Shown: positions 436 to 24,139 of the stretch, one piece after another
Numbering within the stretch: position 1 is the stretch's first letter
Layout: the number at the start of each line of letters is the position of its first letter
DNA from: Thermodesulfobacteriota bacterium
GTDB lineage: Bacteria; Desulfobacterota_D; UBA1144; Nemesobacterales; Nemesobacteraceae
Length of the DNA: 64,000 nt
Direction of reading: 5' to 3'
NCBI GenBank assembly: GCA_965204665.1
Contig: OZ242002.1
Location: 1,433,995-1,497,994, forward strand
Translations under genes and position numbers: made by a program
Notes under the pieces: generated by a model
Databases searched by the model: none
What the model was told of the DNA's origin: nothing
What the model saw: only the letters and a program-made list of their open reading frames with translations

Positions 436-1347
436 TTATATCAGAACCATTTCTTGTTGTTTCTTAATTACAAGTTCTGGGATTTCTAAGAATTCGGACC
501 CTTCGGTTAAAGACTTTTTTAAACTTGCGGCGGTATGTTGCAAAGCTACCATGAAAGGGATGTTTCTTCCTCTAAAAGACAACGGTTCAGCCAAGATGGA
601 TAGTAGAAAAGCTTTTGTTTTTTTATTGATATCAAATATTCCCCGCTCCCAGAGTTTATATACCTTTCTGTCAACTGCTGGCCTGAATGGTTCAATCAGG
701 TCGTCCGCAAGGCACATGGGATTGTATTGATTATGGTGGTGGATACCCAAAGCTGGGTGCAGACCTGTCCCGCAGATAGCGCGAGCAACGGAGGACCTTA
801 CTAGAGAGTACCCATAATTCAGCAGAGAGTTTGTCCCATCAGCTTCTTGGTCTCGTTTGAAACTTTGACCGAACATTAGCGGCCAGTAAATTCTTGATGC
901 CTGAGATTCGATATTTTCAGGGTCACCGCTCCGTACACGCGATTTCATTGAGTTGAGACCGGGAGAAGATTTTCCACAAGAAAGCAATGCCTTTATTTGA
1001 GCTTCTATTTTTGCAATTACAATCTTCTGCCAAAGACGCTTTTTTAGAGGTTTCTTCACACTCGTCTGAATATTTAAAATTTTACTGTGTAGGCAATTTC
1101 CAGAGAGAGGGAGAAGGACAGATACAGGTATATGTCTGCGGTCGCAAAAAATGATAATACAGTTGTTCTGCTGACAGGATGCTATGAGGTTTGAAGAGAT
1201 CGTCACTGATGGATTGGACACTATAAGTACTCCGATATCTTCAATTGGAATCCTTCCGACTTCGATTTTCTGCTGCTCAATTACCATCTGAAGATTCTTA
1301 GTATGAAGATAGGAAGGAGTGCTGATATCGACAATGCGTTTAACCAT
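436..1347 (-). CDS. cas1: CRISPR-associated endonuclease Cas1 (type II)
   Basis: 303 aa. Conserved Cas1 C-terminal region ...GIHHHNQYNPMCLADDLIEPFRPAVD. Overlaps the cas9 stop by 8 nt. Confidence 0.9.
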   Translation of the reverse strand: MVKRIVDISTPSYLHTKNLQMVIEQQKIEVGRIPIEDIGVLIVSNPSVTISSNLIASCQQNNCIIIFCDRRHIPVSVLLPLSGNCLHSKILNIQTSVKKPLKKRLWQKIVIAKIEAQIKALLSCGKSSPGLNSMKSRVRSGDPENIESQASRIYWPLMFGQSFKRDQEADGTNSLLNYGYSLVRSSVARAICGTGLHPALGIHHHNQYNPMCLADDLIEPFRPAVDRKVYKLWERGIFDINKKTKAFLLSILAEPLSFRGRNIPFMVALQHTAASLKKSLTEGSEFLEIPELVIKKQQEMVLI

Positions 1348-4300
1348 CTCGGTTTTTCAAGAGGACCCCGAGCACATCCACGGACTCCTTCCGCATATCA
1401 AAGTTTTTCATAAGTACTGAGATACTTTTCTGTACGCATTCCTTTTTGTTGTTTAGCGTTGCTGCACTGAGGAGTCTCAAAGTTAGTCTTGAGGCACTAG
1501 CCTCAAGTTTCTGCACACGGTAAAATACCCTTTCACCGTTCTCCTCTAGGCTTACGGTATCGTTACTGCAGAGATAGGTTATGTACTCCCAATCTTCTCC
1601 ATGTTCAGTTCTTACAATCGGCTCCTTGAATATCCGAACCTTTTTCGCAACTTCCATGGTTGTTATGAATTCACCTTCATATTTTCCGTTTTGACGGTTT
1701 CTTGTTATTTCTACATGGTGGATATTTCCGTACCTGAGAACATGTAGGGTTTTGCCTTCCTCGTTCTTGTGGTTCCAGTAGGAGTCTTCCGGAAAATCTT
1801 TCGACACCCAGACCCTTGCGCGACATATTTCGTTTCTCGTTTTCGGATGGATCAATGGCTTTTTCGACAATTGCTTCATTGCGGTTTTTACATCTCCTCC
1901 ACCCTCCCAGACATATCTCTCGACTGCAGATCTGATCACAGGGCAAACAATGTTTCCTTTTTCCTTCTCGGTCATATTCTCAAGCATTTTACGCACCACT
2001 AACCCGTGTTTTCCGCCTTCGCCTTCTCTTATCCCGTAGACCGTCTCCTCATGGAACGCTCCAGTTAATTTTCTGTTGGTAGCATGCGAGACTATGAGAT
2101 TTCCTAGTCGGTTGGAAAGAGTATCTCTCAGTTTTAGAAGCGGCGGGTCGACCTTGATTTTGTGATCGGGAGAAATGTCATCATCATCTGGTTTCTGCAA
2201 CTCGGTAATTTGATGAATGATCTTCTGGTAAAGCCTGCGGGTTGTGAGTGCGATTACAGTTGCGTCAACAGCATGGTGCCTGTGGTCTTCTCTGTTTTTT
2301 TCTCCACTATCCCCGAGCAAATTATTGAGTCCCCACTGTTTCCGTAGCCAGCTTGTCGCGCCACCTTTGGTGAAAGATACGTCACAACCTAAGTTCCTTA
2401 TATATTTTCCTGCTTCTCTTGATATGTAGCGTGCGTCTGTCAACTGATTGCTTATAAATTCATCAATTCCACCAAGGTCTTCTTTTAGTAATCTTTCTTT
2501 TTTTGGTCTGGGTAGTGAATTTGAAATTGACAAAATAGAATCCCATTCTTCAGTTTCTTCAAACGCTTCCCGAGGAGTCCTTGCTCCTTTTTCCCTGTTC
2601 TTTCTTGAAAAACAGATAACTTTGTTCATGTACGAGTCGTCAAGGGACCTCTTATACGGAAGTATATGATCAATCTCCGTTTCATCGGTAAAAAGTGTGG
2701 TTTTAGATATCATTTCTCCGCTGTAAATGCATACTCCCCCGCTTTCTTCCCATAGGCGGTATTTCAGTCTGTCCTGATAACTTATGTTCTTCTTGAGTTT
2801 AAGTTGTTGGTTATTGACCCTGATTATTTCATATTGTTCTCTAGCTCTTTCATTTGATTCTTCGTTCTTTTTGTACCTTGCGAGAGTTTCCTTGTACCTT
2901 TTAGTGTTCATTTCAAGGTCTCGCGCCATTTCTATTCGTACTGCGGATGGTTTACCGTATTTTTTGATAATTGCGTTTATAACATGTCGGAGTTCGTAGA
3001 GGGCCTTTTGAACTATTGGATTCGGTATCCAAGGTGGAGACGGAAGCAGGTCAGAATTTCCTTTTTCAACTTCACTGAACTTGTATCCTGCAATGTCTAC
3101 AGCATCATGATATTTTTTCCCTTCTTGCAGATAATGAAGAATCTTTTTCGTTGCTTTCAAAGAAAGGTTCGAATGTTCTTCCTCTAGTTCCACCACAGCA
3201 AGTCTAGTAGCTTCTTCTTCAGGAAATCTCCAGTGATTTAGGAAACGCTTTTTGAGCCCTTTTTTTGAGTTGTAAGAGATTATATCTTCGACAATCTGGG
3301 ACTGTTTCTCTTCACTGAAAGAATCCCAACTATCTCCGAGAATCTTTCTTATATCGCACGCTGTTGTATTTCCTTTGAGACCTTTTGTATTTCCCGGAAC
3401 CTTCTGAAGGTTAAATTCCGTTGCTTTGGGTAGTTTCAGAGCTTTTCTCACTGACGACCATGAGAGCCGTTTTGTCTTTTCAAGTTCACAAGCAAGATTT
3501 TTTTTCTGTTCGTCAGATAGAGGTATATCTATCTCACCTGTTTCAGGATCATCATAAGAGAGATTATTTATTTGTTGCCAGTAGCGAAATTGCTGAGATT
3601 CAAGGCGGGCATTCCTAGTTCTGCTCAACTTGGGTTCGAATGTACAATGCCCCACTCTATCCGGCTTCAGTTTAAGAGGTCTTTGGAAAAAGATGATGTG
3701 CTCAAGTTCCTCCTTCATCTTCTTATGGTAGATTTCAGGATTGAGTTCCGACTGCTTTTCCCATATCTTTTCGAACTCTTCTTTGTACATTGCCCTGTCC
3801 GTGTGTCGGTCATGTAGCGACCCCCTGTTTCGTTTGCGGGGAAGTCCAGACAGGTACTCTCCGAGAGTTCTAGTACCGACCTCGTCCATTTCCTTCCTGA
3901 GTGTTTTTATGTATCCCTTCAGATTTTTTTCGTCGTTGTCTTTATTGGAAGAGTTGTTTTCTTTTTCAAGAATGTTTTGGGCTTTGATGTCATCCGCCAA
4001 GTCTCCAAATGAGGTCTTGCGGTTGCTTAGAAACCCCCTGCGGGACCCTAGATGAAGAAGCGCTCTGCCAAACTCATGACGAGTCAGTTCCTCGTCCATC
4101 GCTTTTTTTCTTATTGAATAAGGGTCTCCCAACTTATTGAGTTCCTGCTCGGGGGAGGAATTATTCTTCAATGAATCGGGCAGAAATCCTTTGAGGACAA
4201 GGTAGTTTCTCAGGCGATTTTTACGTCTACTGCGACGTTGCACCTGTCTTCTCTGGAGGCGTGATTCTCTGCGTTTTCTATTTTTCGGGGTAGGGGATTT

Positions 4301-4447
4301 ATCTTCAACGGAGCGGATGAATATGCGACTTCCACAGTCGATAAATTTTCTGGGTTCTCCATATTTCTCTTCTATTATGCTCCATCCGATAGAGTTTGTC
4401 CCCATATCAAGTCCTATAGCGTATTCAGATAAATTCGACTTTTTCAT
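1340..4447 (-). CDS. cas9: Cas9 (type II-C, compact 1035 aa)
   Basis: RuvC-I motif IGLDMGTNSIGWSI at the N-terminus; HNH motif IDHILPYKRSLDDSYMNKVICFSRKNREKG; RuvC-III HHAVDATVIAL. Followed by cas1-cas2 with no csn2 or cas4, hence II-C. Confidence 0.95.
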   Translation of the reverse strand: MKKSNLSEYAIGLDMGTNSIGWSIIEEKYGEPRKFIDCGSRIFIRSVEDKSPTPKNRKRRESRLQRRQVQRRSRRKNRLRNYLVLKGFLPDSLKNNSSPEQELNKLGDPYSIRKKAMDEELTRHEFGRALLHLGSRRGFLSNRKTSFGDLADDIKAQNILEKENNSSNKDNDEKNLKGYIKTLRKEMDEVGTRTLGEYLSGLPRKRNRGSLHDRHTDRAMYKEEFEKIWEKQSELNPEIYHKKMKEELEHIIFFQRPLKLKPDRVGHCTFEPKLSRTRNARLESQQFRYWQQINNLSYDDPETGEIDIPLSDEQKKNLACELEKTKRLSWSSVRKALKLPKATEFNLQKVPGNTKGLKGNTTACDIRKILGDSWDSFSEEKQSQIVEDIISYNSKKGLKKRFLNHWRFPEEEATRLAVVELEEEHSNLSLKATKKILHYLQEGKKYHDAVDIAGYKFSEVEKGNSDLLPSPPWIPNPIVQKALYELRHVINAIIKKYGKPSAVRIEMARDLEMNTKRYKETLARYKKNEESNERAREQYEIIRVNNQQLKLKKNISYQDRLKYRLWEESGGVCIYSGEMISKTTLFTDETEIDHILPYKRSLDDSYMNKVICFSRKNREKGARTPREAFEETEEWDSILSISNSLPRPKKERLLKEDLGGIDEFISNQLTDARYISREAGKYIRNLGCDVSFTKGGATSWLRKQWGLNNLLGDSGEKNREDHRHHAVDATVIALTTRRLYQKIIHQITELQKPDDDDISPDHKIKVDPPLLKLRDTLSNRLGNLIVSHATNRKLTGAFHEETVYGIREGEGGKHGLVVRKMLENMTEKEKGNIVCPVIRSAVERYVWEGGGDVKTAMKQLSKKPLIHPKTRNEICRARVWVSKDFPEDSYWNHKNEEGKTLHVLRYGNIHHVEITRNRQNGKYEGEFITTMEVAKKVRIFKEPIVRTEHGEDWEYITYLCSNDTVSLEENGERVFYRVQKLEASASRLTLRLLSAATLNNKKECVQKSISVLMKNFDMRKESVDVLGVLLKNRDG

Positions 4448-7927: not shown

Positions 7928-8076
7928 CGCTGTTTCGTGTCTAAACTCCGCCGCTCGAAGATCTTTCTGTCTTAACGCCGAAAACCGTCAGGTTAGACGG
8001 TCATGAATCCTGCTAAGAACGGAGTTGTTTCTCCGTACGGGTAACTCCTGCCGTTCGATCACGGCGTAATCTATTC

Positions 8077-8367
8077 TTGAACCATCATTCCGACGGGAGG
8101 TTTGTCGCCTGCAGTGCGGGAAGTTGTCCGCGGGGTGAAATCAATCCCCAAGCACTCAATCTCCTACTGCAGCGCGGACATGGTACGGAGTATCTGCGCT
8201 CCAAGTCATGGAAAGAGTTCGAGTCGGAAGACGTGCCCGTCATGGATTTTGTATTTACTGTGTGCGACGATGCTGCGGGAGAAACCTGTCCTCTCCGGCC
8301 CGGAAAACCTGTAACGGCCCACTGGCGGCTTGCAGACCCCTCGGATATCGAGGGCAACTACCAATGA
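8077..8367 (+). pseudogene. ArsC/LMW-PTP-family arsenate reductase fragment (N-terminal P-loop missing)
   Basis: Retains YSAG-like FVACSAGS and the distal Cys pair VFTVCDDAAGETCP...HW..DP. No CX5R P-loop is encoded in any upstream frame (in-frame TAA at 8014). The ORF starts at TTG. Confidence 0.4.
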
Positions 8368-8603
8368 GCGGCGGAACTTTTACCGAGGCGTATCTTTTGT
8401 CGGAGGGGCGTATAAAGGCGTTTCTCTCGCTTGATTTTGAATCTCTCCCGAATGAGCAACTTGAGAAAAGTCTCGGGGAAATCGGTGCATTCAGATAGTT
8501 TTTCCACCTGTCCTCTTTATGTTTTCCGATTCACCGGGTGGTTCGGGGTTATGGGCGGTCTGATAAAACACAGCGGGTTTTACGAAAAAGTCGCGATTTG
8601 ATC

Positions 8604-10604: not shown

Positions 10605-11539
10605 ACCTCTCCCCAGGACTGATTCAGGATTTCATTAGGGACCATCAGGTTCCAGTCTTTCATCAAACGGCAATCTCTGGGCCTGCCTTGCATCAGATGG
10701 CGGGGCTGACTCGGACGCAGCCTGCGCAGGGCGTCCAGGTGTGTATTCCTTACCATCAGAGGCTCTCTGTGCTGTTCCAGAAAAAATCCGACCTTCGCGG
10801 CTGTGGTCGCATTCTCCAGCAGGCGGGTGTACGCGATGACTTGTTCCAGGTCGAAGAACTCCACCGATTCCAAGGATCGCCATATTTCCTCTCAGGTTCC
10901 GGTCAGGTCAGGTCGATCCAGCGCATCGACCATGGTTCTTTCATGGCTGGTCACCCGGAGTTTCACGCCGGAGCGCTCATGGCGAGTAACTCCGAACATC
11001 TCCTCTCCTTTCTCCGAAAGCGGCGGAGGCACGGGCGCGCGCCGGAACTCGTGGGACTGAAATGTAAGCGGAAGAGACTTGGTCGCCGAGATGTAGACCA
11101 GCCTCCAGTGTACAGAGTACGCTCTCCCGTGGAACTCCAGGGCAGTGTGGTAGCCCAGTACAGCATCCCCGGTCATCCTGGCCGCCACCAGGAATGGACC
11201 GACCGGAGCGGTTTCGGGGTCCATACCCCGGGGAACCGTTGCATACAGGCCGCGACGCACATGGACGATCCGGCCTCGCTTGCGGTGGTAGGCCAGCAGC
11301 GACTTGCGGGTGCGGGTGTTGCCGGACCCGTATTCGGAGAGGAAGCGGTCCAGTTCGTCCACCGTGAAAACGGCATGTCGAGCTAGGAATTCATTGAGCC
11401 TCACGGAATGTTTTCTTTGACTATCAGTCGACATAGTAGCAAAAAAATAACTGTATTTACTATATTCATCAATTATATGTGTATGAAAAACGGTCGAAGC
11501 GGGAGGGATTTTATTAGTGCTTGTCCACCGATTCGTCAA
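10598..11539 (-). pseudogene. AbiEi-family antitoxin/transcriptional regulator interrupted by an in-frame TGA
   Basis: ORFs 10892-11539 and 10598-10873 are in the same frame, separated by a single TGA at 10892-10894 (...DLTGT*EEIWRSLESVEFF...). Together ~312 aa, typical of AbiEi. The 3' end overlaps the AbiEii start by 7 nt (10598-10604), suggesting translational coupling. Confidence 0.5.
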
Positions 11540-12246: not shown

Positions 12247-12765
12247 ATGGAGACGAGCAGAGTGCCTTTATACGAATACGAATGCGAAAGTTGTATGGAG
12301 CGGTATAACAGGGACATAGACAACCTTGTCGGCAAACTTACAAAAACCAACGCTGCCGACATATTCAGGAAAAATAAAAACTTCTGCTATATTTCGGTCA
12401 CGCGGACAAAGAGCGGAAAACAGGTTTTCGAGTTCGGAGAAAAAAATGCGGCGGGAACGAGAAGGTTTCGTTACTCCCTTGAAAGCGGCAAGGTGCTTTA
12501 TCTTGAATTGAAGAATTTCCGCTTCGACCATCTTGTGTACGGAGAGCAGGACCGGGATGATGCCGTATGTCCCCTATGTGATGATGCCGCTTCGGTAAGA
12601 AGGGTTTTTTCAACATTCAAGGCCATATTTGATGACAAGAACAAAAGAGCGCCGAGGCCGGGAGATGATCTTCGCTGGCACCTTGAATACAAACAGCAGA
12701 AAGACGAGGAAATAGCGAGTGACTGGGTGGGACAGGATCACCTGGGTCAGTATTTCAACAGATAG
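12247..12765 (+). CDS. FmdB-type zinc-ribbon protein with a ~90-aa insertion between the Cys knuckles (paralog 1)
   Basis: MPLYEYECESC...(~95 aa)...CPLCDD. The probable true start is the GTG at 12262 giving MPLYEYEC; RBS GGAGAC upstream. Confidence 0.6.
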   Translation: METSRVPLYEYECESCMERYNRDIDNLVGKLTKTNAADIFRKNKNFCYISVTRTKSGKQVFEFGEKNAAGTRRFRYSLESGKVLYLELKNFRFDHLVYGEQDRDDAVCPLCDDAASVRRVFSTFKAIFDDKNKRAPRPGDDLRWHLEYKQQKDEEIASDWVGQDHLGQYFNR

Positions 12766-12775
12766 GAGAGAGCAG

Positions 12776-13258
12776 ATGCCGCTTTACGAATTCGAGTGCA
12801 TAAAATGCAGAAACAACATTGAAAAATCCCTCAAAGTGCTTGAAAAAAAAACAGATAAACAGACTGTGAAAGGTCTGGTCCAGAAACACGATAATATCCA
12901 CGTGATAGAGGTTGTTGATCTCGAGGGGGAGAAGATACTGGCGAAGCATGGAAAAAAAGGAAAAAATTCGGTGTTTCGGGATTTTTATCTGAATGAAGGA
13001 ACGGTGCTTGCCCTTTTCAACATGCGGAACTACAGATTCTCCGAGCTCATATACGCCGAAGGTGATGAAAAAAACGTGGAGTGTCGTTGTGGGGAGCGGA
13101 AAAAAGTGGAAAAGGTGTTCTCGACTTTTTCCTTTACGAAGGACCTTTCCACCGATATGCCCAAGCCGGACCTCTCGAACCTACCGCCTTCGGTAAGAAA
13201 CAGAACCCATATCGGTGAATATATAGAGGAAAAGGACAGACCGAAAAAGAATAGATAG
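12776..13258 (+). CDS. FmdB-type zinc-ribbon protein paralog 2 (second knuckle degenerate, CRC)
   Basis: MPLYEFECIKC...(~90 aa)...VECRCGERKKVEKVFSTFSF. Clear paralog of the upstream gene (YRFSELIYAEGDEKNVEC vs FRFDHLVYGEQDRDDAVC). RBS AGGAGAG lies 7 nt upstream of the ATG at 12776. Confidence 0.6.
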   Translation: MPLYEFECIKCRNNIEKSLKVLEKKTDKQTVKGLVQKHDNIHVIEVVDLEGEKILAKHGKKGKNSVFRDFYLNEGTVLALFNMRNYRFSELIYAEGDEKNVECRCGERKKVEKVFSTFSFTKDLSTDMPKPDLSNLPPSVRNRTHIGEYIEEKDRPKKNR

Positions 13259-16353: not shown

Positions 16354-16950
16354 ATGGATATACGGGAGAAGATAGGAAAGGCTCTTGCGCTTCCGGGTGC
16401 GGATTCCGACCCCGGTGAAGGTCTTGTCGCATCCGCGGTCGCACTTATGCTGTGCCGTGCGGAGGAGCAGCACTGGATATGGTTCATAAGAAGAACCGAG
16501 TACAGAAAAGATCTCTTTTCAGGTCATGTGGCTTTTCCCGGAGGGAAGAGAAAAAACGAAGATTCCACTCTGTTGCATACGGCTTTTCGGGAGGTGGAGG
16601 AGGAACTCGGATTCTCCCTTGAGACGGAGGGGCGGATACTAGGGGAGATGGGTTTCGTCCGACCTTTTACGCCTGCTGTCCGTCAGTACGCGGTAAAACC
16701 TTTCGTCGCGTTCATAGATGCGGACCCTGACTTTATTCCCAACTATGAAGTCGCTCAATACTTCAGGGTTCCCGTTCGGCATCTGCTTTCTCCGGAAAAC
16801 CGGAAAACAAGAGAAAGAGTGCGGGGCGATGAAATTGTGAACGATTATGTCTTTCGATACCGAAATCACATAATATGGGGGCTTACCGGAAGGATTCTCA
16901 ATGAGTTCTTCAAAAAGACCTCGAACTTTTTTCCCGATTCTGCCGGATAG
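16354..16950 (+). CDS. NUDIX hydrolase (CoA pyrophosphatase-like)
   Basis: Nudix box GHVAFPGGKRKNEDSTLLHTAFREVEEELG. A 4-nt gap after the hydantoinase gene suggests an operon. Confidence 0.75.
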   Translation: MDIREKIGKALALPGADSDPGEGLVASAVALMLCRAEEQHWIWFIRRTEYRKDLFSGHVAFPGGKRKNEDSTLLHTAFREVEEELGFSLETEGRILGEMGFVRPFTPAVRQYAVKPFVAFIDADPDFIPNYEVAQYFRVPVRHLLSPENRKTRERVRGDEIVNDYVFRYRNHIIWGLTGRILNEFFKKTSNFFPDSAG

Positions 16951-17286
16951 AATCCGGTCGAATAACTTTACCATGCCTGCTCATTTGTACGACGGGTACC
17001 CCGACGATGGATACACCAATGTACAGTTTAATGGGTGCTGGGTTTTAGGTAAACTTGAGCCAATGGGCTGTATTGTGCCGGCATCGGTTGCTATTCTGTG
17101 CCAATCTCCCTTCAGAAAAGCAAGAAGAAATGGCTGAAACAGTTTAATGGGCGGGCGAAATTTAAAAGGCATGGCTTCTTATGTGGAGAAATATTTATTA
17201 GATTTCTACAAAAGTACAGAACATCTCTAATTAATGCTGGAGTAACTCTGCTAAGATATTCCCAACTACATCAAGGAGCGGGTTGA

Positions 17287-19031
17287 GTGAGCATTCTAAT
17301 AAAAACTGTGCGTGTTTCAGGATTTCGCGGGCTGGAAAATCTACAGGTGGATCTGGAGCGGACAACTGTTTTAACTGGAATGAATAATACAGGGAAGACA
17401 TCGTTTCTAAAGGCAATACAGATAGCATTGGGCAATCAGTTTATTTCTCCCGACGACTTTTTCATCCGTGATAATAGCAGTTGTGAGCGAATTACGATTG
17501 ATCTGCTTATTGTGCCTGTAGACATCGATGGTTCTGATGTCGACGATTTCTCCGAAGATTGGGAAGTGTTGCTGACCACCGACAGAATTAGAACGGACGG
17601 TATAAAAAACTTCCTGCCTCTAAGGACGATTTGTACTCTTGATTCAACGAACAGCAGTTATAAAATGCAACAATTCATCTTATCAGGTTGGCCGGAATTT
17701 AATGGTAATAACGATTGGCATAAACATGACGATGGTAAAAAAACACGCTTCCATTTCGAGGAAATCCCCTTTTTTATATGGACGCCCAGCGCGACATTAT
17801 GGAGGATACTAGACAAAAAAGTTCATATCTTGGAAAAATGTTGGCCAATATTGAATATTCGGACGCGGATATTGACGAGATAGAAACGCAGATCAAACAG
17901 TTGAACGAGAAAGCCGTAAGTAGCAGTGATGTTCTCCGTAATATTAAAGATACTCTTAAAGACTTAGATTCAGCGATGGGCAGCCAAAGCCATGGTATTG
18001 AGATAACTCCCTTCACTAAGAAAATACGCGATTTGAACAAAGGGATGAGTATCTACTACGGCGACAACAAGGACAGTTTTTCTATGGAGTACCATGGAAT
18101 GGGCACTAGAAGCTGGTCTTCTCTTTTGACTCTAAAGTCCTTTATCAACCAACTTTCCTCTCAAGCAGAGAACAAGAACAACGTGTTTTTCCCACTGCTG
18201 GCCGTAGAAGAACCGGAGGCGCACCTGCATCCGAATGCACAAAAAAAGTTGTACGGGCAAATAAATAACATCGCCGGTCAGAAAATCATTTCAACCCATT
18301 CCCCGTATATTGCTGCTGCTGCGGATATTAAGCAAATTCGAAATTTTTATAAAAGTGAAAAGGTGAATTGTGGCCGTATTAAGATTGATGCCTCGAATAA
18401 GGAAGACATAAGAAAAATAGAGCGTCGGGTGATTAGCCGCAGGGGTGAAATGTTTTTCTCGAAGTTGATCGTGTTTTTTGAAGGGGAAACCGAGGAGCAG
18501 GCATTACCGGTATTTTTCCGGAAATATTTCAGTAGAACCCATGTTGAAGTCGGTTTGGATTTCGTTGGAGTAGGCGGTTATACAAACTATCTTCCCTTTA
18601 TTAGATTCGCCGAAGATCTGGGCATTCCCTGGTTGATTCTCTCAGATGCTGAACAAAAGGCGAAAACGAATGTTTCGGAACAATTTCAGAAATGCAACAC
18701 ACAGAAAAATCTCAATGAAGTTGTTCTTTATTTAGATGGGAGCAACAATTTTGAGCGTCAACTAATTGCTGATGGATTTCAGGATGAAATTAGAAAGAGT
18801 ATTCTTGGTTTTTATGATTACGACAACGAACAAAATAGGGCAGACAGAGAGCAAAAAGTCGAAAGCTATACCGACGATGAACTTTATGAAACCATCAAGA
18901 AAAATAAGACGAAGTACGGCCCCGCCGTTGCAGAAAAAATCATAGAGAGCGGCAAAGAGTTGCCGCCGAAGATTGTAACCCTCTTCGAAAAAGTAAAGTC
19001 CATCCTTAAGTTAGGGGGAGTTGATGTATGA
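17287..19031 (+). pseudogene. gajA: OLD-family ABC-ATPase/Toprim nuclease (GajA-like), split by a 1-nt frameshift
   Basis: Walker A GMNNTGKTS in ORF 17287-17883. Q-loop-like LFYMDAQRD, Walker B LLAVEEPEAHLHP and the Toprim region (VFFEGETEEQ...LILSDAE) are in ORF 17778-19031, in another frame. The overlap contains A7, C4 and T6 homopolymers (17737-17775). Confidence 0.7.
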
Positions 19032-20908
19032 CTTCTCAAGTCGAATTGTCAGAAAAACAACGATCCATTGTTTATGCCGGTCCTGGTCCGGTCTGTGTCA
19101 AGGCCAGTGCTGGCAGCGGTAAAACGCGGGTGCTCACTCAACGCATCAGATATCTACTCAAGCAGTCCAACAAGAAAATATTAGCCTTGACCTTTACCAA
19201 CAAAGCCGGTCAGGAGATCAAGGAAAGACTAAGCGATATTTCTGATATTGATAACAGAACTTTTATAGGTACATTCCACAGTTTTTGCCAATCAATCTTG
19301 GAAAGTCACGGGAAATTGATTGGTTACTCCACAATGCCGCACATATTTGAAGATGAGGCAGATAGACTTGAACTTGTTGAAAGCGCAATCAGCCAAGTTC
19401 CGTCCTATGCAAGCGTTTACAGGAAAAAAGAGGGAAAGCGACGGAGAGACTTTTGCTATCGGGCATTACATTTTGTATCCAAAGTAAAACGAGACCTGAT
19501 CAGTGAATCTGATATAGAGAACCACACGAACGATGACAACATCGTTCTGCTATATCGTAACTATCAAGAACTTTTGAAAGTACAGAATGCTATAGATTTC
19601 GATGACCTATTGCTGGAAGCCTACAATTTGTTCGCCAGTTATTCAAGAATTGCTGCTTTATATCGCCGCAGTTTTTTCGCGATTTGTGTAGATGAAGCTC
19701 AAGACCTTAACAAAGCCCAGTATCAGTTTCTGAAAACTTTAACCGGTGACGAATTCAACAACATTCTGATGGTGGGTGACCCCAACCAATCCATTTTTCA
19801 CTTTAACGGCTCCTCACCGGATTATATGAACAAGTTTTTTGTTGAGGATTTTACTTCAAAAACTGTGGAGTTGACTGAAAATTTCCGATCATCTGTCGAA
19901 GTACTGAAGGCTGCGGAAAAGATTATCCCTGAGGCGGAATATATCGAGGGAACCGTAAAGCGGGGAATATTTGAGATGCATGAAAAAGAGAATGAAACGG
20001 CTGAGGCTGAGTGGGTGGCATCAAAAATTCAAGAAATATTAAGTATGAAGAAACATAGTGACATTGAAGGTGATATTTGCCCGGAGAAGATAGCAGTACT
20101 TGCTAGAAACAAGTATTTGTTCAAGTCCCTGGAAAAAGTTCTGAGTCAATGCTGTATTTCTTACTATTACAAAATGACGCCCGGGTCCTTGAAGTTCGAG
20201 TCCTCCGTAATGCAGGTATTCGACCTCGCTTTAAGGATCAAACTGAATTCACAAGATTTGTTGCACAAAAAACAATTATTGAAGATATTAGATCTTGACG
20301 GAAATGAAAATTCATCCCTTGCGGATATTGCAAAAACATCCGTTCGTACTGAATACAAAAAAATAATATCTCTTGTTATGTCTCTGGATGAAAACGGAGA
20401 AAATTTCAAAAGAAACCTTGAAAATTACAGAGATATGGTCTCCATTGACGACGATAATGATAAAAATATGTTGTTCAATGAGATTAACGAGTTGCTCGTC
20501 CATTGGTATAACTATGCCAAGAGCGTAGACAACACCTCGATTCATCAATTCAAGAACTCGATGGCGCTGGGGCAAACTCACCCTGCAATTCAACACTCAG
20601 GAGTTACTTTAAGCACTGTGCATACGATGAAAGGGCAGGAGTTTGATATCGTTTTTATCATAGGAATGGATGATGAAACCTTTCCGGATTATCGTGCTGT
20701 CAAAAGCGGAGGCGTAGATATGTTGCAGGAGAAGAATAACCTTTACGTTGCATTCACAAGGTCCAAGCGGTGGCTTTATATAACATGGCCTGCAAATAGA
20801 AGTATGCCTTGGGGAGATACTAAACGGCGAAAAAAATCTCGCTTCCTAGTTGGCTTTGAGTCCGAAGAAACAACTCCCAGCAGAAATCTCACGGCCGCTT
20901 TTTCCTGA
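19028..20908 (+). CDS. gajB: UvrD/PcrA/Rep-family SF1 helicase (GajB-like)
   Basis: Motif I ASAGSGKTRVL, II VDEAQDL, III GDPNQSIF, V TVHTMKGQEFDIVF, VI YVAFTRSKRWLYI. ATGA overlap with the gajA-like stop. Confidence 0.75.
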   Translation: MTSQVELSEKQRSIVYAGPGPVCVKASAGSGKTRVLTQRIRYLLKQSNKKILALTFTNKAGQEIKERLSDISDIDNRTFIGTFHSFCQSILESHGKLIGYSTMPHIFEDEADRLELVESAISQVPSYASVYRKKEGKRRRDFCYRALHFVSKVKRDLISESDIENHTNDDNIVLLYRNYQELLKVQNAIDFDDLLLEAYNLFASYSRIAALYRRSFFAICVDEAQDLNKAQYQFLKTLTGDEFNNILMVGDPNQSIFHFNGSSPDYMNKFFVEDFTSKTVELTENFRSSVEVLKAAEKIIPEAEYIEGTVKRGIFEMHEKENETAEAEWVASKIQEILSMKKHSDIEGDICPEKIAVLARNKYLFKSLEKVLSQCCISYYYKMTPGSLKFESSVMQVFDLALRIKLNSQDLLHKKQLLKILDLDGNENSSLADIAKTSVRTEYKKIISLVMSLDENGENFKRNLENYRDMVSIDDDNDKNMLFNEINELLVHWYNYAKSVDNTSIHQFKNSMALGQTHPAIQHSGVTLSTVHTMKGQEFDIVFIIGMDDETFPDYRAVKSGGVDMLQEKNNLYVAFTRSKRWLYITWPANRSMPWGDTKRRKKSRFLVGFESEETTPSRNLTAAFS

Positions 20909-20974
20909 TTCCTTCATGCTCATCGATCTTATCAGAACGGAGCAACATCTGTCCCGAGTGTTGCACTTCGAAGT

Positions 20975-21942
20975 TGAATGGGCGAGGTTCTTTTACTCGC
21001 GCTGAGCCGGAAAATCGTAAAAGGCTAGCAGTTGCTCACGACCCTTCTCCCAAACATCCGGCGGCTTTCGGATATTTGTCCCCGTATATCCTTGTGAACA
21101 GATCAAAAACGCTTCCCTCACATCTACCCGTAAACTTCAGGAAGTGCAGACCCCCAGAACTCCGTCACCGATTACAATCTTCGGCTCTTCCATCCCGCGG
21201 GCCCTGAGGTCCGGCAGCACTTCGCGCCGACTCTGCTTTGATTCCCCGACTCCGTTTTCAATGGAAAGGAAGTGCTTCCTGCCCGCTTCGTCCACCCCTA
21301 TCACCACCAGCGTGCACAACCCGGGATCATCTCCCCGCACCTTGCTGTGTATATATAAGCCCGGTCGCGGCCGCTGAGGTCTCTCCTGCGCCGTTTATCG
21401 TATTCCTCAGCCCACCCGCGCTTGAGCCTGGATACCGTAGCCGCGGAAAAACCCCGAGCCTCGGGGCCTATAAGGGCTTCCAATGCGGACTTTATGTTCC
21501 CCGTGGACAGCCCCTGCAGGTAAAGCCGCGGCAGAGACGAATCAATCTTCGCAGCCCTGCGCACGTACGGAGGCACGACAGCCGAACGGAACACGGCAGG
21601 CCGACCGTCCCGGGATCTCACCTTCGGTATGCGTACCGATACGGGACCTATACCCGTCTGCACCTCCCGTTCGGGGTGGTATCCGTTGCGGATCACCGCG
21701 GCTCTGCCGTCTTCAAGTCGTCTGTCGTCCCGGGACCGCAGGTATTCTTCCGACTCCATTCTGATTGCATAACCAAGGAGAAACCGAGCCGACCGGCTCA
21801 GCAGATCACTGAGGTCGTCGCAGACCTGTTCCGGACTGCCGAATCCGGAGTCAGGTCGTCTCTGAAGGGAAGACCCGTCGATTACTGTTCGGGTCTTCTC
21901 CCTGCCGACGAACTTTCTGAAAATGCTTTCCAATGAATCCAA
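20975..21942 (-). mobile_element. IS256-family transposase remnant (multiple frameshifts, truncated)
   Basis: RNGYHPEREVQTGIGPVSVRIPKVR, LYLQGLSTGNI...GFSAATVSRL and VVIGVDEAGRKHFLSIENGVGESKQSRREVLPDLRARGMEEP match IS256/Mutator transposase blocks but lie in at least two frames. Region is ~60% GC or more. No terminal inverted repeats identified. Confidence 0.7.
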
Positions 21943-22222: not shown

Positions 22223-23392
22223 ATGGAAAAAAAAGAACGTATCGGCAGGCATGTAAAAAGTCCGGTTTCGGGAGGAGAATATTACGAGTCTTATATTCCG
22301 AAGCCTCTTCCTCCGAAGCCGCCTCTTTTAATGGATGAACTCTACCCTCTGCTTGAGAAAGCTAACATAGCGTTGGGTCGTCTTGACGGAATACATACGA
22401 TTCTTCCCGACTCTTCACTTCTTCTCTATATGTATGTCAGAAAAGAAGCCGTACTCTCTTCTCAGATTGAAGGAACGCAGTCCAGTTTGTCTCAACTTTT
22501 GCTGTATGAAGTTAAGGATTCTCCGGGGGTGCTCAGGGATAACGATGCTGCTCAGGCATCGCGTTGTGTCTCCGCCATGTATTATGGACTCGAGCGATTG
22601 AAGAATTTTCCGCTCTCCCTGCGTCTTATAAGAGAAATTCATGGTGAACTTATGCGGGGTGTTCGCGGCGGAGATATGTTCGCGGGTGAATTCAGGACAT
22701 CCCAGAACTGGGTGGGAGGTTCCCGGCCTGCAAATGCGCGTTATGTTCCGCCGCCTGCGGAAAACCTCATGGAATGTCTTGATAACTTCGAGAGGTTTCT
22801 GCATGAAGAAACGAGAAAATCGCCTGTTCTCATCAAGGCTGCTCTGGCGCATGCTCAGTTTGAGACGATTCATCCGTTTATCGGCGGAAACGGGCGGGTC
22901 GGACGGCTCCTGATAACTTTCATTCTGTGCGCTGAAGGAATTCTGAAACAGCCTCTTCTGTACCTCAGTCTCTACTTCAAGGTCAACCGTCAGGCTTACT
23001 ATGACTGTCTTCAGGGCGTGAGAGAAACGGGAGATTGGGAAGCATGGGTATCTTTTTTCCTCGAGGGCGTTATCGAGACAGCGGGTCAGGCCGAGGAGGC
23101 GGTAAGAACTATCATTGACCTGTTCGAGAGAGACCGGCGACGAATCGAGGAATCGGGCAAGTCGACTTCCGGTGTCTTGAATGTGTACGACCACCTGAAG
23201 CGGTTTCCCGTCAGCGATACGCATTCCATAAGAAACTCTTTCAAGACCTCCCATACTACGGTGCTTAGAAGTCTCCGTTTTCTGGAGTCTCTTGAAATAG
23301 TCAGGGAGATTACCGGCAGGGACCGCAACAAGCTTTTCGTCTACAGGGAGTATATGAACATTCTTGAGAAGGGGACGGAACCCGTTTTCTGA
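22223..23392 (+). CDS. fic: Fic-family protein (class II, N-terminal inhibitory helix)
   Basis: Fic motif HPFIGGNGRVGR; inhibitory SSQIEGTQSS motif in the Fic_N region; C-terminal wHTH-like tail. 389 aa. Confidence 0.9.
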   Translation: MEKKERIGRHVKSPVSGGEYYESYIPKPLPPKPPLLMDELYPLLEKANIALGRLDGIHTILPDSSLLLYMYVRKEAVLSSQIEGTQSSLSQLLLYEVKDSPGVLRDNDAAQASRCVSAMYYGLERLKNFPLSLRLIREIHGELMRGVRGGDMFAGEFRTSQNWVGGSRPANARYVPPPAENLMECLDNFERFLHEETRKSPVLIKAALAHAQFETIHPFIGGNGRVGRLLITFILCAEGILKQPLLYLSLYFKVNRQAYYDCLQGVRETGDWEAWVSFFLEGVIETAGQAEEAVRTIIDLFERDRRRIEESGKSTSGVLNVYDHLKRFPVSDTHSIRNSFKTSHTTVLRSLRFLESLEIVREITGRDRNKLFVYREYMNILEKGTEPVF

Positions 23393-23419: not shown

Positions 23420-24139
23420 ATGAATCGAGAGATTGAAAGACTCCGGCTGGGAGTTACTCCTTCTGTGAAGGAATCTTTTCATCTTCAGAGAAAACTTTCA
23501 CGGATGGTTATCAGGATTCCGGGTCCTGCGGATATAGGCACCGTAGCCGGAGCGGATATAGCGATTCGGACAAAAGAAAGAAAACTCATCTGCGGAATCA
23601 TTCTTTTTTCCTACCCCGAGATGAAGGAGATTGAGAGAGTCTGGACTGTTTCGGATGAGGTTTTTCCATATGTCCCGGGTCTTCTGGGTTTCAGAGAAGC
23701 CCCTGCCGTGATAAAAACGTTTAAGAAACTCAAGAACCGTTGCGATATGCTTATGGTGGACGGTCACGGGCTCGCCCACCCCAGAAAGTTCGGGCTCGCG
23801 TGCCATGTCGGCGTCTTACTCGATATTCCGGCAATCGGTGTTGCGAAGAAAAATCTTTACGGAACTTTCGAAGAGGTCGGTCCGGCAAGAGGCGAAAGAA
23901 CACCCGTAATAGGAGAGGGCGGGGATGTATTGGGGGTGGTTCTGAGGACGAGAGATGGGGTGAAGCCGGTTTATATATCGGTCGGCAACAGAACCGATAT
24001 TGATACGGCGGTCGCTGTTGTACTTGAGTGCTTGCGCGGTTTAAGAATTCCGGAACCCACGAGACTCGCGGATAAATACGTTGCTTCACTTAAAAAGGAA
24101 GCGTTTGTTTCTTGGTCCGATGGGATTGAACGCATCTAA
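23420..24139 (+). CDS. nfi: Endonuclease V (deoxyinosine 3' endonuclease)
   Basis: VAGADIA...PYVPGLLGFREAP...VDGHGLAHPRKFGLACHVGV...PAIGVAKK conserved Nfi blocks. 239 aa. Confidence 0.9.
   Translation: MNREIERLRLGVTPSVKESFHLQRKLSRMVIRIPGPADIGTVAGADIAIRTKERKLICGIILFSYPEMKEIERVWTVSDEVFPYVPGLLGFREAPAVIKTFKKLKNRCDMLMVDGHGLAHPRKFGLACHVGVLLDIPAIGVAKKNLYGTFEEVGPARGERTPVIGEGGDVLGVVLRTRDGVKPVYISVGNRTDIDTAVAVVLECLRGLRIPEPTRLADKYVASLKKEAFVSWSDGIERI

Follow-up and report, generated by a model that had tools for sequence, protein, structure and literature searches.

A probable Gabija relic with a frameshifted nuclease gene, linked to type I restriction–modification operons, in a Thermodesulfobacteriota genome

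The window analysed here is a stretch of 64,000 nucleotides (nt) from a Thermodesulfobacteriota genome (assembly GCA_965204665.1, contig OZ242002.1, forward-strand positions 1,433,995 to 1,497,994), and its main subject is a pair of adjacent genes, gajA and gajB, that are predicted to encode a defence pair of the Gabija or class 2 OLD family. The gajA gene, which joins an ATPase to a Toprim nuclease, is broken by a single missing base, while gajB, a helicase gene, is complete. The pair was acquired horizontally, and the reading that we consider probable is that of a Gabija cassette of foreign, AT-richer origin that once belonged to a type I restriction–modification (R-M) operon and is now most likely a recently inactivated relic, in which gajB is intact but orphaned. 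Unless the missing base is a sequencing error, the system as sequenced is predicted to be non-functional, because the frameshift parts the Walker A motif from the rest of GajA. The cassette is a further case of a known system, and its subfamily is already covered by PADLOC profiles.

A nuclease gene divided between two reading frames

The gajA gene had been taken for one intact gene in a preliminary description, whose positions for the open reading frames (ORFs) agree with the ORF listing, but it consists of two ORFs in different frames. The N-terminal ORF (17287-17883, + strand) has 198 codons, in which residues 1-164 are GajA, with the strand–Walker A segment, and the last 34 codons run out of frame to a premature stop. 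The C-terminal ORF (17778-19031, +) encodes 417 amino acids (aa) and holds the Q-loop, the dimerisation region, Walker B, the H-loop and the Toprim domain. The two overlap by about 100 nt and meet at a run of six T (17770-17775, +) that has one base fewer than in every homolog. The PADLOC GajA profile (PDLC00067, 604 positions) is shared between them in the same way, with positions 1-166 covered by the first ORF (157 bits, E 1.2e-46) and 167-601 by the second (524 bits, E 9.5e-158). At the frameshift site the window reads CCCTTTTTTATATGGAC, where homologs read CCCTTTTTCTATATGGAT or CCATTCTTTTACATGGAT; the codons of the closest homologs are CCC TTT TTC TAT ATG GAT and those of the window CCC TTT TTT ATA TGG AC. 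Adding one base restores the junction PFFYMDAQRD and yields a GajA of 581 aa that aligns end to end with 14 homologs at 62-76% identity, and the junction residues F162, F163, Y164, D166, A167, Q168, R169 and D170 are invariant in the window protein and all 14 homologs. By comparison, gajA lies in one uninterrupted frame in 86 of 86 homologous loci, comprising 80 metagenome loci from a family-alignment search and six found by exact look-up. The 417-aa fragment is recorded as a called protein (P0009) of the deposited genome in NCBI and ENA, and the lesion is therefore present in that genome.

The consequences for expression can be read from the start sites. A Shine-Dalgarno sequence, AAGGAG, lies 8 nt before the GTG start of gajA (17287), and translation from this GTG stops after 198 codons. 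The 417-codon ORF has only a poorly spaced GAGGA upstream and is without Walker A and the first 164 residues of GajA, so that the ATPase head is short of its N-terminal third. That its product would be inactive is supported by the Bacillus enzyme, of which the Toprim fragment alone (GajA-CTR) has no nuclease activity (PMC8136825).

While the identities of the genes and their motifs, the frameshift, the edges of the cassette and the settings of its relatives are shown by the sequences, we infer both the loss of function and a biological, non-assembly nature of the deletion, and between a real mutation and a sequencing error we lean towards the former. The competing view, possible but clearly less likely to us, is that Gabija is intact and functional here, that the missing base at 17770-17775 is an assembly error in a homopolymer and that both the 581-aa GajA and GajB are made. 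Several observations speak for it and so weigh against a relic. The lesion is exactly one base within a T-run, and a single base in a homopolymer is the commonest type of sequencing or assembly error. Frameshift aside, gajA is without decay: it keeps all its motifs and 211 of 221 clade-invariant residues, and the 10 positions at which it deviates from residues invariant in the other 14 sequences (0-9 in leave-one-out controls) mostly carry conservative changes (E/D, K/R, V/I). Since gajA is otherwise healthy, the lesion is either very recent or an assembly error. In addition, gajB is fully intact and has its own AGGAGG ribosome-binding site, and the Shine-Dalgarno sequences and the ATGA coupling of the two genes are retained. 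A healthy gajA and gajB fit a functional system with one miscalled base equally well. Other points bear on the function and history assigned to the cassette. GajA is only about 14-17% identical to B. cereus GajA, so that the mechanism is transferred over a large distance, and its Toprim motif is DxE where the canonical motif is DxD. The history, whether an insertion or the decay of an R-M operon in situ, is an indirect reconstruction, since neither an empty site nor a sister strain could be obtained for comparison. We know of no member of this clade that has been challenged with phage.

A real mutation is nevertheless favoured on three grounds. First, twelve other homopolymers of at least 6 bases in gajAB are read in frame, and long genes throughout the window, among them ORFs of 1721, 1035 and 648 aa, show no break. 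Second, the window holds genuine pseudogenes, namely an insertion sequence (IS) remnant of the IS256 family and an arsC-like gene; these other broken genes have multiple lesions away from homopolymers and are therefore the result of real decay rather than error. Third, both the operon context of the cassette and the gajB stop codon are already gone, which suggests that the cassette is no longer maintained. The arsC-like gene (about 8006-8498, +), an arsenate reductase of the low-molecular-weight phosphatase type, is broken into three pieces that fall in frames 3, 1 and 3, and its catalytic CTGNSCRS reads RTGNSCRS. Its frame breaks are not at homopolymers, which argues for genuine gene decay in this genome.

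A frameshift of this kind could in principle also be regulatory, with a phase-variable T-run or -1 ribosomal or transcriptional slippage yielding small amounts of a full-length and potentially toxic GajA. Abortive systems that rely on a nuclease carry a cost, and other bacteria are known to switch defence genes ON and OFF. If tRNA-Phe slipped by -1 on UUU_UUU (17770-17775), reading would continue as UAU AUG GAC, which gives exactly the conserved FFYMDAQRD. Even so, we regard this explanation as very improbable. Recoding is not conserved, as all 86 loci are uninterrupted and the closest read TTTTTCTAT without a long T-run, and no canonical X_XXY_YYZ heptamer is found in the zero frame. Host genes use AUA, the codon in the A site, more than any other isoleucine codon (27 per 1000), and it is hence not a 'hungry' codon. 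Furthermore, the folding of the next 100 nt downstream is no stronger than that of shuffled sequences (z = -1.3), and six bases are short for phase variation or transcriptional slippage.

Gabija is present in roughly 8-15% of sequenced genomes (PMC10568477). Defence finders based on hidden Markov models would call Gabija at this locus despite the interrupted nuclease gene, and care must be taken in counts of systems per genome to check for such lesions. If a relic, the cassette can also serve as an example of defence turnover, having been cut from an R-M operon and left beside a decayed IS, with the stop codon and then the frame lost.

Family assignment and expected mechanism

The preliminary description had proposed a Gabija or class 2 OLD architecture in which an ATPase with Walker A and B motifs plus a Toprim domain at the C-terminus is coupled through ATGA to a complete UvrD-type helicase. 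This assignment held when the PADLOC profiles were run, with the qualification that the ATPase and Toprim domains of gajA, both present, are divided between two frames by the 1-nt deletion. Pfam finds the N-terminus of AAA_15 in the first ORF and the C-terminus of AAA_15 together with OLD-like_TOPRIM in the second. On rival PADLOC models the C-terminal fragment scores only 84 bits for Old and 62 for AriA (AriA matches range from 47 to 62), compared with 524 for GajA. All of the ATPase motifs are found, namely Walker A GMNNTGKTS (G31-S39), Q-loop Q168, Walker B AVEEPE (E308/E309) and the H-loop STHS (H338), and Walker A, Walker B and the H-loop align with the regions of K35 and H320 in the GajA of Bacillus cereus (BcGajA).

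The Toprim active site is likewise in place, with E399 and E403 (EGETE), the glycines G428-G431 and D454-A-E456 (SDAEQ). Both conditions that the preliminary description had named as refuting it, a grouping with AriA/AriB or stand-alone OLD and a lack of Toprim catalytic residues, thus come out in favour of Gabija. In the alignment EGETE stands opposite the Toprim glutamates, which are EGPSE in BcGajA and EGDAE in the OLD proteins of Burkholderia (BpOLD) and Xanthomonas (XccOLD); G428-G431 stands opposite the conserved glycine and D454-A-E456 opposite the DxD motif. The corresponding residues of BcGajA are E379, G409 and D432/D434 (PMC10781630). The second Toprim aspartate is conservatively replaced by glutamate in the window protein. 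Walker A, Q168, E308/E309, H338, E399, E403 and D454-A-E456 are invariant in 15 sequences (the window protein and the 14 homologs), and because DxE is invariant across the clade it is a clade character and not decay. For BcGajA D511 and K541 the sequence alignment, which ends at about residue 469, yielded no counterparts; the clade-invariant E490 and K541 are candidates for them.

Structural comparison points in the same direction. An AlphaFold2 model of GajA was built from the 15-sequence alignment and has a mean predicted local distance difference test (pLDDT) score of 62 overall, with most of the Toprim region at 70-90 and residues 164-281 poor. The best Foldseek matches of this model are the GajA chains 8u7i, 8sm3 and 8x5i, with the class 1 OLD of Thermus scotoductus (TsOLD) next. 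The C-terminal regions 6nk8 and 6njx of class 2 OLD proteins match it from end to end (target-normalised template-modelling score about 0.64), the Burkholderia and Xanthomonas regions covering 206-212 columns at scores of 0.57-0.65. Helices span residues 457-574 of the model, at pLDDT 70-90. Class 2 OLD proteins have a helical insert of about 50 aa relative to class 1 (PMC10568477), and such an insert would fit here, since the repaired GajA (581 aa) is 53 aa longer than TsOLD (528 aa).

The helicase gene gajB (19028-20908, +) encodes a 626-aa protein of the superfamily 1A (SF1A) type, resembling UvrD, PcrA and Rep. Its start shares 4 nt with the gajA stop as ATGA (19028-19031). The protein has the Pfam domains UvrD-helicase and UvrD_C, and it matches the PADLOC GajB profile (PDLC00132) over its full length at 751 bits (E 2e-226). 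All SF1A motifs are found (AGSGKT, DEAQD, GDPNQSI, NFRSS, VHTMKGQEFD and YVAFTRSK), and AGSGKT, DEAQD, GDPNQSI, VHTMKGQEFD and YVAFTRSK are invariant in GajB alignment A2. A housekeeping PcrA, UvrD or Rep is not supported for this protein, the scores being far under all three NCBIfam cut-offs (pcrA 301 bits against 911, uvrD 242 against 1144, rep 234 against 951). The pairing of the two genes is well conserved: gajB is found next to gajA in every look-up and in 78 of 80 metagenome loci, the remaining two being on contigs that stop shortly past gajA. A plasmid search with GajB returned relatives of at most 38% identity, which are likewise paired with an AAA ATPase.

It can be asked whether the locus is Gabija at all, or instead a housekeeping UvrD/PcrA beside an unrelated ATPase of the OLD, AbiL or PARIS type, or a class 1 stand-alone OLD. 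Compared by sequence alone, PcrA (E 1e-51) is indeed nearer to the helicase than B. cereus GajB is (8e-14), and in a search against solved structures the repaired GajA is about equally close to class 1 TsOLD (E 3e-11) and to BcGajA (E 4e-10, phmmer). Its match to the C-terminal regions of the class 2 OLD proteins of Xanthomonas and Burkholderia has an E of about 1e-6. On the other side, the PADLOC GajA and GajB profiles match end to end at 6-8 times the scores of Old or AriA, the helicase falls short of the housekeeping cut-offs, and across the clade the two genes stay paired with 4-nt overlaps. The GajA chains lead the Foldseek matches and the class 2 C-terminal regions align in full, the length relative to TsOLD is consistent with the class 2 insert (PMC10568477), and the Toprim domain is fused to the ATPase instead of forming a separate DUF4435 protein as in PARIS. 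We regard a system other than Gabija as the least probable of the explanations considered here.

Among the closest known systems is Gabija of B. cereus VD045 (8SM3, 8U7I, 8J4T). It and the window pair both have an operon of gajA followed by gajB, a GajA made of an ABC-ATPase-like and a Toprim domain, and an SF1 UvrD-like GajB with a DEAQD box; the B. cereus protein is also the best structural match of the model, and the Toprim glutamate (E379 in BcGajA, E399 in the window), glycine and acidic pair are shared. They differ in the acidic pair itself (D454-x-E456 in the window, D432-x-D434 in BcGajA), in GajB, which is 494 aa in B. cereus and longer and more PcrA-like in the window, in the frameshift of the window gajA and in the link of the window clade to type I R-M operons. 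The class 2 proteins BpOLD and XccOLD (6NK8, 6NJV; Schiltz et al. 2019) share the EGxxE and (T/S)DxD/E motifs, with EGETE...SDAE in the window compared with EGDAE...TDLD and TDRD, as well as an aligned helical insert and an adjacent gene for a UvrD-like helicase. The second acidic residue of the window protein is however glutamate, and the similarity is limited to about 85 residues (E 1e-6). Class 1 OLD proteins (P2 Old and TsOLD, 6P74) have the same ATPase–Toprim fusion at a comparable distance, but they are encoded by stand-alone genes, whereas the window clade has a conserved helicase partner and a protein about 50 aa longer. PARIS (AriA/AriB, class 4 OLD) belongs to the same ABC-ATPase superfamily and gives a weak AriA match, but in PARIS the AriB Toprim (DUF4435) is separate and there is no helicase, whereas in the window the Toprim is fused and a helicase follows.

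What an intact system of this kind might do can be outlined by analogy with B. cereus. There, GajA and GajB form a 4:4 complex (PMC10781630), and the Toprim endonuclease of GajA is fully inhibited by physiological nucleotides (NTP/dNTP) through its ATPase-like domain (PMC8136825). GajB senses the ends that GajA leaves in DNA and hydrolyses (d)ATP and (d)GTP (10.1101/2023.05.02.539174), and a 2025 preprint connects target choice with phage proteins antagonistic to RecBCD (PMC12407980). By this analogy, an intact window system would form a GajA/GajB 4:4 complex in which the Toprim nuclease would be held off by physiological NTP/dNTP acting on the ABC-ATPase-like domain. Once phage replication depleted the nucleotides, GajA would cut DNA, and GajB would sense the resulting ends and hydrolyse (d)ATP and (d)GTP, thereby deepening the depletion. 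Beyond B. cereus, only a few other systems are known to show the 4:4 complex, NTP-inhibited cleavage and phage protection (PMC10781630, PMC8136825), and the B. cereus mechanism is carried over to the repaired window protein by inference only.

Origin from a type I restriction–modification operon

The origin of the cassette can be traced through its edges and through the neighbourhoods of its relatives. A blastn comparison with a homologous locus, L002, aligns window positions 17202-20874 at 76% identity, so that the match starts 85 nt before gajA, within the 3' end of hsdS. In L002 the gene order is hsdM-hsdS-gajA-gajB-hsdR, with 4-nt overlaps among the first four genes and hsdR starting 21 nt after gajB. 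Directly upstream of gajA the window holds a degenerate remnant of an hsdS 3' end (17197-17286, +). Its aligned part (17197-17269, 73 nt) has a local score of 25 with the hsdS 3' end of L002, compared with 10.1 +/- 1.5 for shuffled sequences (z = 10), and because this alignment contains indels the remnant is a dead stub. A further candidate, 17098-17140 as a match to the hsdS fragment of locus L001, was no better than shuffles and was rejected. No protein-level matches to hsdM, hsdR or further hsdS were found in the window.

At the right edge, homology to other gajB genes ends at about 20874 and the native stop codon is lost: where L002 reads GAA AAA TAA, the window reads GAA GAA ACA ACT..., and the ORF continues for 11 codons in foreign DNA. 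This edge both cuts the gajB stop and abuts a decayed IS256-family element, which points to an IS-associated deletion.

Relatives of the pair suggest that the window cassette (about 17197-20874) was not always alone. In alignments A5/A6, which cover loci L028-L107, the upstream same-strand neighbour is Methylase_S (HsdS) in 20 of 57 cases and the downstream neighbour HSDR_N (HsdR) in 10 of 46. Look-ups of relatives (L001, L002, L004-L006, L026 and the P0018 context) gave complete hsdM-(DUF1016)-hsdS-gajA-gajB-hsdR operons, and stubs of hsdS only, as in the window, also occur, in L001 and L026. The GajAB clade is usually nested in type I R-M operons as hsdS-gajA-gajB-hsdR, and the window cassette is probably derived from such an operon whose partners have been lost. 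Other downstream neighbours in the clade include RhuM (4), Fic-like_C (2) and one intact IS256-family transposase. A search of the literature turned up no paper that deals directly with Gabija inside hsd operons.

The tight nesting suggests that Gabija and type I restriction may be functionally coupled. Accessory defence genes of the PrrC type are nested in type I R-M operons, and the relatives of the window pair resemble them in lying between hsdS and hsdR with stop/start overlaps, but for GajAB the functional link to R-M is only a proposal and the window copy is without R-M genes. A stronger proposal, which we consider unlikely, is that the GajAB clade with a DxE Toprim is a functional accessory, or 'guard', of type I R-M and not an autonomous system. 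GajAB would then be co-translated between hsdS and hsdR and would be triggered by phage anti-restriction proteins that disable the R-M complex, like PrrC with EcoprrI. The window copy would have been stranded by the IS256-associated loss of its R-M partner, and the frameshift would then have switched it off because it was useless or toxic.

Composition, neighbours and other features of the window

The preliminary description had noted that the approximately 3.6 kb of gajAB are richer in AT than their surroundings and are followed by an IS256 remnant and a Fic protein, and had taken 16.95-23.4 kb as a defence or mobile islet. The first two points are borne out along the window, where GC content falls to 41% over 17-21 kb from about 50% on either side. 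The third stands only for gajAB, which is indeed low in GC (33-47%), with a GC content at third codon positions of 0.44 against 0.54 in eleven long host genes. The IS256 remnant is at 52-64%, which makes it a third source, and the Fic gene, at 45-53%, is host-like; the spacer between these two is AT-rich (27-35%). Since only gajAB is low in GC, the IS remnant being high and the Fic gene host-like, 16.95-23.4 kb is a mosaic, a patchwork of pieces with three compositions and no single mobile islet. A search around the cassette revealed neither significant direct or inverted repeats at its flanks nor a tRNA gene close by, and no empty site emerged. Over 16.8-23.5 kb, promoter and terminator counts were at chance level and an Rfam search gave no matches.

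The IS256-family (Mutator-type) transposase remnant (20910-21942, -) starts about 35 nt past the end of gajB homology and is heavily decayed, its segments lying in frames 0, 2, 1, 2 and 1 (at least 4 frame changes) with additional in-frame stops. Pfam Transposase_mut matches it at profile positions 19-159 (21301-21942) and 182-237 (21137-21340), and the NCBIfam transpos_IS256 match is below cut-off. From Pfam profile position 237 to a segment FDLF...KYPKAA no homology is recognisable, so that the remnant probably has an internal gap, and no C-terminal end of the transposase can be recognised in it.

The gene that follows (22223-23392, +) encodes a 389-aa Fic-domain protein of the SoFic type, which is a candidate single-gene defence protein. 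It has the Pfam domains Fic_N and Fic and matches PADLOC SoFic (PDLC03963) at 377 bits (E 2e-113). Like SoFic, the Fic AMP-transferase of Shewanella oneidensis, it retains the inhibitory motif SSQIEG, and it aligns full length with the Shewanella SoFic structures (E 1e-34). Unlike SoFic, it has a catalytic loop of HPFIGGNGRVGR instead of HPFIDGNGRTGR, in which glycine replaces the metal-binding aspartate at the acidic position of the Fic loop consensus HxFx(D/E)GNGRxxR, and it scores 162 bits against a cut-off of 550 on the NCBIfam SoFic equivalog. The protein may thus be catalytically altered.

On the left of the region lies a NUDIX hydrolase gene of host composition (16354-16950, +; GC about 52%), which resembles a CoA pyrophosphatase, with a Pfam NUDIX match and an NCBIfam PRK10707 match below cut-off. 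On the right lies the endonuclease V gene nfi (23420-24139, +; Pfam Endonuclease_5, E 1.8e-67), the first gene of a conserved nfi-carA-pepF block. A scan of genome contigs for endonuclease V identified the two nearest genomes (80% and 73% identity), which are metagenome-assembled genomes (MAGs) labelled Thermodesulfobacteriota and Spirochaetia, and nfi-carA-pepF synteny is kept in both (L007 and L009). Upstream of nfi these genomes carry unrelated genes that are not in the window, and the loci retrieved from them lack the Fic gene; no empty site could be defined from the two. The site upstream of nfi is variable. In the nearest relative genome a second copy of endonuclease V was seen (L008, 10001-10691, MAG OZ220467.1), which lies in two frames (tblastn 1-90 and 90-232).

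Elsewhere in the window, a type II CRISPR-Cas module (436-4447, -) lies on a second low-GC patch (41-42%) and consists of Cas1 (436-1347) and a 1035-aa Cas9-like protein (1340-4447) with the domains HNH_4, RuvC_III and Cas9_a. No CRISPR repeat array was found in 1-1500, and the window may end before the array or cas2 is reached. An ORF at 10892-11539 (-; GC 53-58%) has a weak match to AbiEi_4, an antitoxin or transcriptional regulator, and may belong to a pair of the toxin-antitoxin or abortive-infection type. Lastly, two tandem overlapping ORFs of 172 and 179 aa are found at 12247-13258 (+; GC 43%), each with an N-terminal match to Zn_ribbon_8 that is below the Pfam cut-off.

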